Shown: in pieces, positions 2,915-52,035 of the stretch
How positions within the stretch are numbered: the stretch's first letter is position 1
Layout: each line of letters starts with the position of its first letter
NCBI GenBank assembly: GCA_951406725.2
Contig: OX597822.1
Span: 45,632,001-45,696,000 of the forward strand
Length of the DNA stretch: 64,000 nucleotides
Origin: Octopus vulgaris
Lineage: Eukaryota
Direction: 5' to 3'
The notes under the pieces: generated by a model
Databases searched by the model: none
Told to the model about the DNA's origin: nothing
The model's input: the letters and a program-made list of their open reading frames with translations, nothing else
Made by a program: the position numbers and the translations under genes

Positions 2915-3377
2915 CAGTAGCGGACTGACCAGTTTGTCAGCTTTCTCGATGGCAAGTGGGCCCCTGCGTTATTAGAATCCATATATGGGGACTCATGTTA
3001 ATATCTAAGGGGCCCATCCCCTCAAGTTTGAGAATTTTTTTATTCACTCTTGGAAGAATGCATAAATTACTCCAGCCTAGCTGTGTTTGTAGACAGTTGA
3101 AAAGAATATTTTTAACAAAAAAATTAAATGATAGCATTGTAGCTGCGGGTGGCCCCCCTTGTAGTTGCGGTTGATCCCCCTTGTAGTTGCGGATGGGCTC
3201 CCTTATAGCTGCCTGTTGGCTCCCTTGTAGTTGCGGGTGGGCTCTCTTGTAGCTGCGGGTGGGCCCCCTTGTAGTTGCGGGTGGGCCCCCTTGTAGTTGC
3301 GGGTGGGCCCTCTTGTAGTTGCGGGTGGGCCCCCTTAGTCGCCTGGTAACCAATATTTTAGACCCAGTCCGCCACTG
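2915..3377. mobile_element. Non-autonomous hAT-type element containing a 22-bp minisatellite (ttgtagttgcgggtgggccccc, about 9 units, 3138-3345)
   Basis: TIRs cagtagcggactg / cagtccgccactg; 8-bp TSD ccctttac / cccattac (1 mismatch). Confidence 0.8.
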
Positions 3378-15903: not shown

Positions 15904-15943
<40 letters not shown>

Positions 15944-16732
15944 AAACAAGTGAAAAAACAAAAAATAGAAAATGCTAAAATAATTTTATAGTGAACATTT
16001 CAGTACCGGTTTCGGTCATTTTGAGACCTTTTCAACTGTAACGATTAAATAATTAAATTTAGAAAAATTAGAAGAAAAGTTTTTTTAAAAGAATATTTCT
16101 ATAGTAGTGTTCAGATTTAAGTGGCATTCTGCCTTTCTCTGACTCCCTTGTTTGCACTTGTGTGTTCGAGGTAGTTGTGAGTTCTTGGTAGGGTAGAAGA
16201 GGGAAGGCTGGTGAGGAAAGGGGGTGGGAGAATCTGGGAGTGCCCTGATGGTCGTATTTTGAATGGTCAGTGGCGGCTGGCAGTCTGCAGTTCAATTCAG
16301 GAGAATATTTATATTGAGAGGTTTGTTTATAGAATTAGCGTAGGTGTTATACTAAAAAACATTAGTGACAAACTTAAGGGGTAGGGGGTGGAGAAGAAGA
16401 AGAAGAAGAAGAAGGAGAAGGAGAAGATGATGGTGATGGTGGTGATGATTATGACGACGATGATGATGATAACGATGATGATGAAGAAGAAGAAGAAGAA
16501 GGAGGAGGAGGAGAAGGAGAAGATGGTGGTGATGATGGTGGTGATGATGATGACGCCGATGATGATGATAACGATGATGATGAAGAAGAAGAAGAAGAAA
16601 AAAACAGAGAAGGGAGAATATGAATGGGTGTAAATATAGCTATGAAGGGGCTGATTAGTAATGGATTCTATGGAATGTAGTATTTGTGTGTGTATATATA
16701 TTTTTTCTTTTATTCTAAAGTTGAGGTATATT

Positions 16733-18850
16733 AATTGTTTGTCGTAGACCCGTTAAGAAGTGGCCTGTATTTTGTAATAAAGAGATTTTCTTTACTTATT
16801 CTTTGTCTCGAGGTTGTATCGTCCCTAAATTGGTAGAGGGGGAAAATTCTGAAGTTGGTGTTTTTTGTTGGCGCAAGTATCTATGTGTTGGCTGAAAGCT
16901 ATTTTTCTGTTTTGGGGAATTTTTATCTGGGATCTGTGCAGGGCCATTCGTTTACGCAAACCATTTTTTGTTTGGCCTATGTACTGCTCTTGACACCCGG
17001 AGCAGGTTAGTGAGTATATTAGGTTCTCCGAAGCACATGTGAAGTTGCTTTTCACTGTAAACCGTTGTCCCTGTTTGAAGGAGAACTCAGAACCCTCGAT
17101 TAGATAGTCGCATATCCCGCAATTGGGTCTTCCACATTTTTTTACTGTCGGCTTCTGTGTTGAAGAGTGAATTCGGGCTTGTGTTAGATGGAGGTGTGTT
17201 CATTCTGTGGTCTTTTTTTAGGAGGGGTATGTTGTGGAGGATGGTGTCGAAGGCTTCGTTATTGAGAGGGTTGTGTGTGGAGATGTATGGTAAGGCTTTT
17301 GGTTGTAAGTTTTTCTTTGATTTGGGATGTCTCAGTTCCTTGATGTTAAGTTGAAGGGCACGTTGAATGCACTTGTCTGTTCTGGTGATTAGGGTATCTT
17401 TTAGTTCTTGTAGTCGTGTGTCTCTGGTGTTTGCGTTAGAGACTATAGTGCATATCCTTTTTGCTAGATTGAAGGGGATATTCATCCTGGTGTGTCTGGG
17501 GTGGCATGAATTGAATGGAAGATATTGCTTAGAGTCTGTAGGCTTATAGTATATGTCTGTTTCTATTATATTATTAGCTTTCTTAATGAGGATATCGAGG
17601 AAGGGGAGTTGTTGTTGGCTATATTCCATCGTGAATTGGATGTTTACGTCCAGTCCGTTTAAAATTTTCTGTAATTCTATGAGTTTTTCTATATTTTTAT
17701 GCCAAAGGATGAAACAGTCATCTAGATATCTCTTCCAGTTGTTTTCTATGTAGATGGAGAAAGGGCTGCCATATCTTTCTAGAACCTTACGATACAGACT
17801 GATCTCTAGGTATCCTATGACTAGGTTGGCAAAGGAGGGGGCCATTCGTGTACCCATCGCAGTCCCCGATTTTTGTCGGTAGAAGTTGTCATTGAAGGCG
17901 AAGAAGTTATTTTCCAGGATGAATTTAACCCCTTCTATCACAAATTCTTTTTTGATGCGGTGTGGTAGTTCGTTGGCGTGATTCTCTAGCCAGAATTGGA
18001 TTGCCTCTAGTCCTAGGTTGTGGGGGATATTGGAGTAGAGGTTGACTACATCGAAGGATACCAGTATGGTGTTTTTGTTTATAGTATTCGGTAGGTGATT
18101 GAGCATATCTAAGTCGTCCCTTATATAGCTTTTGACATGTTTGAGGAGTGGTTTTAACAGGGTGTCTAAAAAGTTACTGAGGCGGTGGGTTTCGCATGCG
18201 GGACCTGCTATTATGGGTCTCAATTTGAGGTCATTAGGATTAGGGACTTTAATTATTTTGTCTGTAGCTATCTTGCATGCGTTGCTTATTTTTTCACTTT
18301 TGTGGATCTTAGGTATACCGTAGAATTGGCTAGTTTTACTTGTGAAATTGGTCATATAATCATATTCTTTGTCGGTGAGCCCTGCTTTGTATGGGTTTAA
18401 TATGGATTTTAGTTCCCTCATTATTTTTTGTTGACTGTAGTTTTGTGCCTTTTCATAGTATGTTGTGTCTTCCAGCATAGAAAGTACCAAAGTTATGTAA
18501 AATGTCGTATCCATTAAGACAACAGCACTCCCTTTATCGGCCTCTTTGATTGTTATTGTTTTATCTAGTTTTAATTTGTTCAACTCAGCCCATTCTTTTT
18601 TGCTGAAGTTTGGTTTGTGTTTTTGTTTGTGCATATGTTGATATGGGTAATTTGATATGTGGTCACAGAAATCATCAAGTGTTTTATTCTTACCTTTCGA
18701 GGGGGTGTAGTTACTCCTATTTCTGGCTAACGATTCGTCCTCGTTGTATTTATCGTATAGCTCCTCAAGTAAGTCTTAATTTTCTGCAGAATTCTGCGAT
18801 GTCTTCTTTCATTTCATTGTAGTTGGGGTGTTGTGGGGTGGGTGTAAACT
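16733..18850 (-). pseudogene. Penelope RT-GIY-YIG polyprotein, disrupted (main open segment 17087..18634)
   Basis: RT motifs LRPIIAG, SFDVVNLYSNIP, QKSGTAMGTRMAPSFANL, WKRYLDDCF, FLDILI; linker KKCGRPNCGICDY; endonuclease NLIYSLTCSGCQEQYIGQT; frameshifts near 17170, 16855 and 18650. Confidence 0.92.
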
Positions 18851-19678
18851 TGAGAATTTTCCCCCTCTACCAATTTAGGGACGATACAACCTCGAGACAA
18901 AGAATAAGTAAAGAAAATCTCTTTATTACAAAATACAAGCCACTTCTTAACGGGTCTACGACAAACAATTAATATACCTCAACTTTAGAATAAAAAGAAA
19001 AAATATATATATACACACACAAATACTACACTCCATAGAATCCATTACTAATCAGCCCCTTCATAGCTATATTTACACCCATTCATATTCTCCCTTCTCT
19101 GTTTTTTTCTTCTTCTTCTTCTTCATCATCATCGTTATCATCATCATCGGCGTCATCATCATCACCACCATCATCACCACCATCTTCTCCTTCTCCTCCT
19201 TCTTCTTCTTCTTCTTCTTCTTCTTCTTCTTCTTCATCATCATCGTTATCATCATCATCGTCGTCATAATCATCACCACCATCACCATCATCTTCTCCTT
19301 CTCCTTCTTCTTCTTCTTCTTCTTCTCCACCCCCTACCCCTTAAGTTTGTCACTAATGTTTTTTAGTATAACACCTACGCTAATTCTATAAACAAGCCTG
19401 TCAATATAAATATTCTCCTGAATTGAACTGAGACTGCCAGCCGCCACTGACCATTCAAAATACGACCATCAGGGCACTCCCAGATTCTCCCACCCCCTTT
19501 CCTCACCAGCCTTCCCTCTACTACCCTACCAAGAACTCACAACTACCTCGAACACACAAGTGCAAACAAGGGAGTCAGAGAAAGGCAGAATGCCACTTAA
19601 ATCTGAACACTACTATAGAAATATTCTTTTAAAAAAACTTTTCTTCTAATTTTTCTAAATTTAATTATTTAATCGTTA

Positions 19679-19716
19679 CAGTTGAAAAGGTCTCAAAATG
19701 ACCGAAACCGGTACTG
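19679..19716 (+). ncRNA. Minimal hammerhead with U3-A8 core variant in Neptune pLTR; identical copy at 16001-16038 (-), mutated copy at 19960-19997 (-)
   Basis: cag TTGAAAA ggtc tcaaaat gacc GAAA ccgg TA ctg; palindromic ACCGGT stem III; GUA site. Confidence 0.72.
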
Positions 19717-19799
19717 AAATGTTCACTATAAAATTATTTTAGCATTTTCTATTTTTTACTTGTTTTTTCATATATATCAACTCGTGTGTTCCTTTTCAC

Positions 19800-19874
<75 letters not shown>

Positions 19875-20409
19875 AGGGTGAAAAGGAACACACGAGTTGA
19901 TATATATGAAAAAACAAGTCAAAATAGAAAATGCTAAAATAATTTTATAAAGAACATTTCAGTTCCGGTTTCGGTCATTTTGAGACCTTTTCAACTGTAA
20001 CGATTAAATAATTAAATTTAGAAAAATTAGAAGAAAAGTTTTTTTAAAGGAATATTTGTGTAGTGTTCAGATATAAGTGGCATTCTGCCTTTCTCTGACT
20101 CCCTTGTTTGCACTTGTGTGTTCGAAGTCGTTGTGAATTCTTGGTAGGGTAGAAGAAGAAGAAGGCTGATGAGGAGAGGGGGTGGAAAAATTTGGGAGTG
20201 CCTTGATTGTTGTATTTTGAATGGTCAGTGACGGCTAGCAGTTGCAGTTCAATTCAGGAGAATATTTCTATTGAGAGGTTTGTTTATGGAATTTGCGTAG
20301 GTGTTTTACTAAAAAGCATTAGTGATAAAGTTAAGAGGTAGAAGGTGGAGAAGAAGAAGAAGAAGAAGAAGAAGATGACGATGTTGATGATGATGATGAT
20401 GAAGAAGGA

Positions 20410-20469
<60 letters not shown>

Positions 20470-21158
20470 GGTGGTGGTGGTGGTGGTGGTGGTGATGATG
20501 ATGACGACGATGATGATGATAATGATGATGATGAAGAAGAAGAGGGGGAAGAAGAAGAAAACAGAGAAGGGAGAATATGAATGGGTGAAAGTAGTGAGGT
20601 GTTGTATGACTTGAAGTTGGCATGTTATGGATTATAGCTGTGATTGGGGCTGATTAGTAATGGATTTTTTGGAATGTAATATTTGTGTGTGTATATTTCT
20701 TTTATTCTAAAGTTGAGGTATATTAATCGTTTGTCGTAGACCCGTTAAGAAGTGGCCTGTATTTTGTAATAAAGAGAGTTTCTTTACTTATTCGTTGTCT
20801 CGAGGTTGTATCGTCCCTAAATTGGTAGAGGGGGAAAATCCTGAAGCCTGGTGTTTTGTTGTTGGCGCAAGTATCTATGTGTTGGCTGAAAGCTATTTTT
20901 CTGTTTTGGGGAATTTTTATCTGGGATCTGTGCAGGGCCATTCGTTTACGCAAACTATTTTTTGTTTGGCCTATGTACTGCTCTTGACACCCGGAGCAGG
21001 TTAGTGAGTATATTAGGTTCTCCGAAGCACATGTGAAGTTGCTTTTCACTGTAAACCGTTGTCCCTGTTTGAAGGAGAACTCTGATCCCTCAATTAGATA
21101 GTCGCATATCCCGCAATTGGGTCTTCCACATTTTTTTACTGTCGGCTTCTGTGTCGGC
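19875..21158 (-). mobile_element. Second, diverged 5'-truncated copy of the Neptune Penelope (GIY-YIG ORF 20723..21049 plus pLTR)
   Basis: Colinear with 15938-17160; uninterrupted GIY-YIG frame; between (TA)n/(TG)n tracts. Confidence 0.9.
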
Positions 21159-21184
21159 TATATATATATATATATATATATATA

Positions 21185-21712: not shown

Positions 21713-21720
21713 AATGATAC

Positions 21721-22006
21721 ACACGTTCGCGCATGCGCACGCACACGTTCGCACATGCGCACGCACACGTTCGCGCAGGCGCAGTCACACTTTCGCGCAT
21801 GCGCAGTCACACTTTCACGCATGCGCAGTCACACTTTCACGCATGCGCAGTCTCAACTTCGCGCATGCGCAGTCACACATTCGCGCATGCGCAGTCACAC
21901 GTTCGCGCATGCGCAGTCGCACCTTCGCGCATGCGCAGTCACACTTTCGCGCATGCGCAATCACACGTTTGCGCATGCGCAGTCACACTTTTGCGCAGGC
22001 GCACGC
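21721..22006. repeat. 13 x 22-bp CpG-rich minisatellite, consensus acacNttcGCGCATGCGCagtc
   Basis: Units counted directly. Confidence 0.92.
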
Positions 22007-22060
22007 ACACGTTGCCGCACGCACATATATGTGCGCATATAGCATAAGACCATATATATA

Positions 22061-48497: not shown

Positions 48498-48674
<177 letters not shown>

Positions 48675-49778: not shown

Positions 49779-49809
<31 letters not shown>

Positions 49810-50281
49810 GCAATTAAGGACAACTACTTAATAAGGAAAACTTAACAAGAAATTGTCAGGTAGATAGCGTGAAAACCTCATAAGAGAAAAAATTTCGAAA
49901 ATAATTATTTCTTATTGAACATATTAATTTATATATAGAGGGCATTATACATACATGCCAGATGGCATTATACATACATGCCACACGCTAAGAGGGACAA
50001 TTAGTCATTTCTACCAAAAATATTACTAAAATTTTTTCTCTTATGAGGTTTTCACGCTATCTACCTGACAATTTCTTGTTAAGTTTTCCTTATTAAGTAG
50101 TTGTCCTTAATTGCTAAATTTTTATTCCGAAAAAACTTTTCCTTTCCTGAAATGCAATTCGTAAAAAGTCTGACATTTACAGGATGTAATATATGTAAAC
50201 TCACCCATGTGCTTCGCTGATGTTGATCAGTTAGCTGATCGGCTTAGGCGAGGCAGGGTCGTTTATGTATGATATATCCAG

Positions 50282-50325
50282 GCCTGCTGATGAATACGTA
50301 AGTATGAAATCACTGTGATACAGGT
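50282..50325 (+). ncRNA. Type I hammerhead ribozyme, copy 1; predicted cleavage after A50320
   Basis: gcctg CTGATGA atac gtaa gtat GAAA tca ctg tga TA caggt: perfect core, three stems, AUA site. Confidence 0.88.
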
Positions 50326-50755
50326 ATATTTTTTTAAATGTCTTACTTTGAAAAATTGCATTCGGTGGGATTAGTAATATTTTTGGTAGAAATGACTAAT
50401 TGTCCCTCTTAGCGTGTGGCATGTATGTATAATGCCATCTGGCATGTATGTATAATGCCCTCTATATATAAATTAATATGTTCAATAAGAAATAATTATT
50501 TTCGAAATTTTTTCTCTTATGAGGTTTTCACGCTATCTACCTGACAATTTCTTGTTAAGTTTTCCTTATTAAGTAGTTGTCCTTAATTGCTAAATTTTTA
50601 TTCCGAAAAAACTTTTCCTTTCCTGAAATGCAATTCGTAAAAAGTCTGACATTTACAGGATGTAATATATGTAAACTCACCCATGTGCTTCGCTGATGTT
50701 GATCAGTTAGCTGATCGGCTTAGGCGAGGCAGGGTCGTTTATGTATGATATATCC

Positions 50756-50807
50756 AGGCCTGCTGATGAATACGTAAGTAAGTATGAAATCACTGTGATA
50801 CAGGTCT
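50756..50807 (+). ncRNA. Type I hammerhead ribozyme, copy 2; predicted cleavage after A50800
   Basis: aggcctg CTGATGA atac gtaagtaa gtat GAAA tca ctg tga TA caggtct: 7-bp stem I; 4-nt insertion confined to loop 2. Confidence 0.88.
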
Positions 50808-50942
50808 ATTTTTTTAAATGTCTTACTTTGAAAAATTGCATTCGGTGGGATTAGTAATATTTTTGGTAGAAATGACTAATTGTCCCTCTTAGCGTGTGGC
50901 ATGTATGTATAATGCCATCTGGCATGTATGTATAATGCCCTC

Positions 50943-50974
<32 letters not shown>

Positions 50975-51411: not shown

Positions 51412-52035
<624 letters not shown>

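Follow-up and report, generated by a model that had tools for sequence, protein, structure and literature searches.

Animal non-LTR retrozymes are described as tandem, non-coding, AT-rich units with one type I hammerhead each (PMC7229834; 10.64898/2026.07.22.740005). The preprint regards two consecutive units with complete motifs and a motif fold below -5 kcal/mol as the criterion for a retrozyme, and argues that animal retrozymes derive from Penelope-like elements (PLEs) (10.64898/2026.07.22.740005). PLEs were proposed as retrozyme partner from shared ribozymes and co-occurrence, with the mechanism left unresolved (PMC7229834; 10.64898/2026.07.22.740005). PLE insertions characteristically combine an inverted arm and a tail confined to one end (PMC8557442). 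The protein of a lizard PLE cuts and extends both strands in vitro, and two internal start sites bound the tail (PMC11167929). For cephalopods, the giant squid genome paper lists 235 hammerhead matches, with no analysis in the text at hand (PMC6962438).

In the published literature we found neither a cephalopod retrozyme nor PLE-type retrozyme ends; supplementary tables may list a cephalopod family. As far as these texts go, the retrozyme class and its link to PLEs are already in print, and the insertion ends reported here give unusually clear genomic evidence on the copying.

The locus

The window, i.e. the whole stretch of DNA analysed, comprises 64,000 nucleotides of Octopus vulgaris (contig OX597822.1, positions 45,632,001 to 45,696,000). 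The array has the order (TA)n, inverted arm 49808-50029, direct arm 50029-50952, (TA)n, with the following features:

49786..49809, no strand: left (TA)n target tract (sequence)
49808..50029, minus strand: inverted arm of 222 nt, unit positions about 272 back to 51, without ribozyme, with the downstream fixed end E2 (...CCTTAATTGCTA) as its 3' terminus
50029..50952, plus strand: direct arm of 1.9 periods, with the upstream fixed end E1 (...GCCCTCTATATATAAAT) as its 3' terminus
50282..50325, plus strand: type I hammerhead 1 with a 5-bp stem I; cleavage predicted after 50320
50321..50800, plus strand: single complete cut-to-cut monomer, 480 nt, non-coding
50385..50541, plus strand: conserved structured domain (alignment of 12 relatives; mostly invariant pairs)
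50464..50475, plus strand: E1, upstream fixed 3' end of insertions, putative start of reverse transcription
50476..50590, plus strand: 'tail' from E1 to E2 (distance of the two sites about 122-128 nt)
50591..50596, plus strand: E2, downstream fixed 3' end of insertions, putative start of reverse transcription
50756..50807, plus strand: type I hammerhead 2 with a 7-bp stem I; cleavage predicted after 50800
50943..50974, no strand: right (TA)n target tract (sequence)
51427..51585, minus strand: PSMC5/Rpt6 exon upstream of the host intron (protein match)

The spacings between units are 476 and 480, and in the alignment the two periods differ only by a 4-nt insertion and one substitution. The inverted arm matches the unit over 231 nt at 99%. 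Thus, the two near-identical units of 476/480 bp and the inverted partial unit ahead of them in (TA)n, described in an earlier note on this DNA, were found again. The 480-nt monomer proposed there is correct for this copy, the only complete one in the 1.9 periods and the inverted arm, but not for the family: most monomers have 474-481 nt, and the length of 480 goes back to a private insertion.

The element sits between two PSMC5 exons. The exon at 51427-51585 resembles 26S proteasome subunit 8 (E 4e-28), and the next one carries GPPGTGKT at 48647. The gene lies on the minus strand and the hammerheads on the opposite one, so that the antisense position stated before is right. The idea of an RNA released from the PSMC5 intron is misleading, because the pre-mRNA strand has no ribozyme and release would require antisense transcription. 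The intron is a mere landing site, with the element on the strand opposite the gene. The effect on the host gene, a long intronic hairpin without ribozyme on the pre-mRNA strand, is likely small.

Hammerhead motifs and predicted folding

CUGAUGA cores were located at 50287 and 50763, each with GAAA and an AUA site, and cleavage is predicted at H17 (50320 and 50800). Both motifs have a stem II of 4 bp and the stem III AUCA-cug-UGAU. Stem I is shortened in hammerhead 1 by a private C-to-A change (5 bp in copy 1 versus 7 bp in copy 2), and loop 2 has 4 nt in copy 1 versus 8 nt in copy 2, which carries the private 4-nt insertion. Both type I motifs are therefore complete, and both differences between them stand as first noticed. 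Two consecutive complete units with a motif fold below -5 kcal/mol are thus present, as the preprint asks of a retrozyme. A descriptor scan of the whole window yielded both hammerheads and one further candidate; a hammerhead-like motif with palindromic stem III and without loop 3 is seen at 1639-1670 on the minus strand.

In the predicted fold, stems I and II form with a probability of 0.74-1.0 and stem III with about 0.03, because the core pairs with the 5' strand of stem III. By itself the stem III hairpin has +0.8 kcal/mol, and the inactive fold wins. Between two molecules the near-palindromic stem III is predicted at -10.1 kcal/mol, far better than within one; no cross-pairing between the two ribozymes occurs in the predicted fold of the genomic transcript. 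Stem II is closed by A-U at this locus, whereas the larger sister subfamily has G-U and several older subfamilies have G-C; PLE hammerheads conserve G10.1-C11.1 in this stem (PMC4209133). Stem III of 4 bp differs from the minimal or 1-2-bp palindromic form of PLEs (PMC4209133).

The suggestion that stem III (ATCA-ctg-TGAT) closes intramolecularly and makes monomer activity plausible consequently holds for the pairing but not for its strength, in view of the values above and of the A-U pair in stem II. Activity of the monomer is possible, since relatives retain a 4-bp stem III with non-palindromic loops; dimer- or protein-assisted cleavage appears at least as likely. Eight of nine Xenopus retrozymes were inactive in vitro (10.64898/2026.07.22.740005). 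As a circle, the monomer 50321-50800 is predicted to fold at -137 kcal/mol (z -8.3 versus 100 shuffles). In the consensus fold of alignment A1, columns 38-42 pair with 148-152, which joins the CUGA core to UUCGG, a conserved sequence further downstream. This pairing could possibly act as an off-switch; stem I is misaligned in A1.

The repeat family

Searching the genome with the monomer gave at least 183 matches (39 scored of 1,387 candidates). An exact 21-mer of the ribozyme occurs 120 times and its reversed control not at all, hence the motif is not a chance one. A wider hammerhead pattern was found at 544 places and a pattern with long stem II at 1,429 (control 0 for both); the motif of the tail in older relatives was counted 710 times. 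For mapping, 150 stretches were taken by best match or listing order (L001-L120 and L181-L210, some overlapping), which represent a fraction of the family.

Monomers of 474-481 nt prevail (38 of 39, one of 455). The largest insertion (L076-L077, G000 C1:64639650-64655250) spans about 15.6 kb, with an inverted arm, 31 tandem ribozymes and the ends E1 and E2; its 30 monomers vary at only 10 columns. Units differ by 2.3 substitutions inside one insertion (33 pairs) versus 11.9 across insertions (708 pairs). Copy number, dispersed copies, independent tandem arrays and this low divergence bear out the young non-coding hammerhead repeat assumed in the earlier note.

Eight natural periods, 60-100% identical to the local one, measure 472-504 nt. 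The longest ATG reading frame has 29-76 aa across eight relatives and 39 aa in the local subfamily. All eight fold better than their shuffles (z -1.4 to -11.2; below -3 in six). The catalytic core is retained in relatives of 60-74% identity, while stems I and II vary: stem I reads CCTG/CAGG, CTTG/CAAG, TCTG/CAGA, TGCA/TGCA or TTCA/TGGA, and 9 of 15 distinct 4-bp combinations pair versus 24 of 170 mixed ones. From the alignment of 12 relatives, a long-range helix of 50385-50389 and 50410-50416 with 50529-50541 is predicted, enclosing a hairpin and the E1 site. Two-sided changes concern 5 of 44 consensus pairs and the covariation term is near zero, so the fold around E1 rests mainly on conservation.

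A DNA satellite, a MITE-like repeat or an assembly artefact with a chance hammerhead-like motif would agree with inverted arms that resemble terminal inverted repeats. It would also agree with the outcome of the Rfam scan proposed earlier, which missed the motifs: the hammerhead models gave zero matches here at gathering score and likewise at E up to 5. We regard this explanation as hardly credible. Stem I covaries, the inverted arms have another length at each locus with their ends at two distinct fixed sites, the two local copies are told apart by private changes, and the joint between units occurs in contigs of four of four public sequencing runs.

By these measures, the local array is one young copy of a dispersed, non-coding, hammerhead-bearing superfamily. 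One type I hammerhead per unit, dispersed dimers to arrays, lack of coding capacity and a self-paired predicted circle were all found, and on these sequence features the repeat is a new member of the already described retrozyme class. With animal non-LTR retrozymes it has in common the AT-rich tandem units, the range from dispersed monomers to long arrays, the highly self-paired predicted circle and PLEs in the same genome. Cleavage and circles were demonstrated there for coral, mussel and axolotl, whereas here they are predictions from sequence. Xenopus retrozymes resemble pLTRs of named PLEs; in contrast, the local unit matches no autonomous element examined. As in plant LTR retrozymes (PMC7229834; 10.64898/2026.07.22.740005), a ribozyme-bounded non-coding RNA is thought to circularise and to be moved in trans, but those elements have a type III hammerhead, LTRs, a primer-binding site, a 4-bp target duplication and Gypsy partners.

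Anatomy of the insertions

After six duplicate stretches had been dropped and two neighbouring ones joined, L001-L090 gave 86 insertions. Two positions account for their 3' ends, E1 and E2, which are separated by about 122-128 nt; beyond them (TA)n follows. Two arms are present in 60 of the 86 insertions. Among these, 47 combine E1 with E2, one has E2 twice, none has E1 twice and 12 have one end truncated or untyped. One end of each kind is thus seen in 47 of 48 fully typed insertions (p 1.7e-13). Animal retrozymes can have large target-site duplications; with (TA)n on either side of the insertions, one would not stand out here.

In 24 of 26 testable insertions the two arms share the same or nearly the same variant (midrank 0.08 or lower), the exceptions being L020 and L067. 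The arms differ from each other by 0.8% on average over all, versus 2.8-5.4% from other loci. Common variants could also stem from fold-back copying or later gene conversion.

These features resemble the pLTR and tail architecture of PLEs (PMC8557442; PMC11167929) with its partial tandems, inverted 5'-truncated arm, tail at one end and microsatellite targets. Three hallmarks of PLE insertions were found: the inverted, 5'-truncated arm (60/86), the tail at one end (47/48) and the microsatellite target, (TA)n. As in the lizard PLE (PMC11167929), the hammerhead lies upstream of two internal start sites. Unlike PLEs, the local unit has no ORF and is circularly permuted, and its tail of about 125 nt is about four times longer than the 30-40 nt of PLEs. 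Non-autonomous Chlamys PLEs such as MRC1 (PMC8557442) are likewise non-coding parasites with pLTRs and head-to-tail multicopy insertions; unlike here, they generally resemble autonomous partners at their 3' ends and belong to a clade mostly without canonical hammerheads. Inverted arms, two fixed ends and (TA)n targeting were found here and are not described for retrozymes in the text at hand of PMC7229834 and 10.64898/2026.07.22.740005.

The 5' ends of the arms were compared with the cut site, leaving out five family C stretches and the six duplicates. None of 137 lies within 3 nt (2.0 expected); within 10 nt there are 5 versus 6.0 expected, and within 20 nt 17 versus 11.8 (p 0.08). A pile-up as sign of cleavage in vivo is hence absent. 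A cleaved linear template, for which arm ends should gather at the cut site, does not fit, and the template was presumably a circle or a wholly uncut multimer. Of 94 arms, 47 are longer than one period.

Copying from long uncleaved tandem transcripts, as a non-autonomous PLE parasite with a weak or rarely used ribozyme, without circle and with arrays grown by unequal recombination, would account for the read-through of the cut site and for arms above one period. The weak predicted fold would suit it, as would the repeated variant patterns (a-b-b-a-b-b in L066, recurring linked variants in the 30-unit array). The lizard PLE offers a precedent: unprocessed RNA was the main substrate and no reads ended at the cut site (PMC11167929). 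However, ribozyme pairing kept over relatives of 60-74% identity is hard to explain if the ribozyme never cuts. The period length is conserved, too, and any one array, inverted arm included, is homogeneous for a variant of its own. We therefore judge this explanation rather unlikely. The circle is favoured over the uncut multimer because the ribozyme is conserved across such divergence.

With somewhat better than even confidence we hold that the local repeat is an animal non-LTR retrozyme, likely cut, circularised and copied in trans by a PLE, probably of Neptune type. This reading draws on the dispersed copies and arrays, the lack of an ORF, the conserved ribozyme, the (TA)n flanks, the inverted arms, the one E1 and one E2 per insertion, the match of arm variants and the read-through of the cut site. 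The ribozyme would likely cut the monomer from tandem transcripts, probably aided by dimer folding or a protein, and the monomer RNA would likely close into a circle. A PLE-like reverse transcriptase-endonuclease would nick both strands of (TA)n and copy the RNA into these sites in trans. Each nick would prime at E1 or E2, about 125 nt apart on one RNA, and both polymerases would travel round the circle for a variable distance. Joined tail to tail, the two cDNAs would give the inverted arm.

Tentatively, and with a doubt that outweighs our confidence, the family can be pictured as a long-lived, viroid-sized lineage of RNA circles that has diversified in this genome without surviving parent transposon. 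It would have retained its ribozyme, its length and a folded priming element of its own, which offers two starts about 125 nt apart to a dimer of a Neptune-type enzyme. Every insertion would consist of two rolling-circle copies of a single circle, primed from opposite target strands; the sense RNA may be heavily A-to-I edited. If true, such a lineage would explain the 'tail plus inversion' structure of Penelope and directly show retrozyme circles as substrates of PLEs. The ends of the insertions are a direct pointer to priming by a PLE and place both putative start sites with a precision of a few bases, and the rule of one end of each kind constrains how PLEs form inverted insertions.

Some insertions are fusions of the unit with other non-coding families. 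At L031:2060-3270 (G000 C1), a second tandem family with a period of 360 nt, a minimal hammerhead with CUGACGA core and a palindromic CUCGAG stem III is fused to the 476-nt family in one insertion. At L014:700-1440, an arm of the family is joined via a short common word to another inverted, pLTR-like non-coding element. From these sequences it appears that more than one RNA can supply one insertion.

Penelope-like elements and candidate partners

No ORF-bearing element recurs with the unit in the 150 stretches (L001-L120, L181-L210), and an ORF with RT and GIY-YIG between pLTRs was not found there. Upstream extensions of the arms lead back into the unit, and a same-strand PLE ORF adjoins in three of the 150 stretches (L083, L111, L205). 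In L083 it adjoins the unit across a short TA run. In L111 and L205, older relatives are fused on the same strand to the 3' region of Neptune-type ORFs, without (TA)n; the junction occurs in 1 of 30 copies for L111 and, by match coordinates alone, in 1 of 40 for L205. Such fusions fit template switching within one insertion, or might have arisen by chance where PLEs are as abundant as in this genome. The Neptune-type ORFs concerned were rejected as parents, as the unit is absent from their other copies. C1:70534500, by its spacing a candidate for pLTR-ORF-pLTR, proved to consist of two insertions plus another ribozyme repeat. Loci with one ribozyme were rejected as autonomous parents as well, and so were the diverged families (C, E and later ones), all being non-coding in the fetched stretches.

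An autonomous Penelope-like element with ORF-bearing copies outside the fetched stretches might be the source, the copies seen here being its 5'-truncated pLTR tandems. In favour of this, every hallmark of the insertions is that of PLEs, ATG occurs in the ribozyme core as in the lizard PLE, a GTAAGT resembling a donor and a tract resembling an acceptor are present in the local subfamily, and only part of the family was fetched. Yet the arms wrap into the unit, two of the three PLE ORF neighbours were tested and are one-off, and arrays reach 31 ribozymes. Retention of an intron, with the donor in loop 2 and the acceptor near 50411, was rejected: the donor is missing in relatives, and no GT-AG joint occurs in the contigs of four runs. 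This origin is thus very improbable, and the independent tandem family claimed in the earlier note agrees with the PLE-type insertions and the long arrays.

A candidate enzyme for the copying of the retrozyme, intact and active, is present in the same genome. The PLE at 15905-19837 of the window belongs to an active family, which matches 40 places at about 100%. This Neptune-type element occurs in tandem full-length copies, one with an intact frame of 784 aa with RT and GIY-YIG domains; its linker C-x4-C-x2-C is of the Neptune/Nematis kind (PMC8557442). It uses (TA)n targets and has two ends of its own, about 32 nt apart. A sequence match between the unit and this element was not found. The copying enzyme is likely of PLE type and probably of Neptune type. 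Dependence on a Penelope RT, as assumed earlier, agrees with the insertion structure.

Further observations concern the same very young family (window 15905-19837 and 19872-21184, L211-L212), which has a tandem period of 4.4 kb. An open frame of 446 codons precedes the 784-aa RT-EN frame, and a variant hammerhead with the core UUGAAAA is present. By eye, E1 of the family and its relatives (CCCTCTATA..., 50464-50475) resembles the downstream end of the active element (CCCTTATACA, L211-L212).

Contigs of putative RNA runs

Contigs of four runs from four studies, taken by guess as RNA, cover the entire unit and the joint between units; a tandem and a circle look alike in them. At 50326, contigs of three runs (X1, X2, X3) have the letter of the family instead of the private local one. 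This is not informative on silence of the local copy, since contigs drop rare variants. In run X6, a strong strand-biased excess of A-to-G was seen over 50126-50601, with 33 places versus at most 5 of any other kind (3 T-to-C). For ten of 12 sites examined, G was never seen in 76-79 genomic loci, and the other two are subfamily variants; the genomic spectrum has no A-to-G excess. This hints at A-to-I editing of the ribozyme strand in X6, a run labelled as another organism. Neither of two motifs taken from loose ends in X6 occurs in the genome, with up to 2 mismatches allowed.

Apart from the array, the window contains 22-nt minisatellites at 21720-22013 (13 copies) and 3137-3336 (9 copies).
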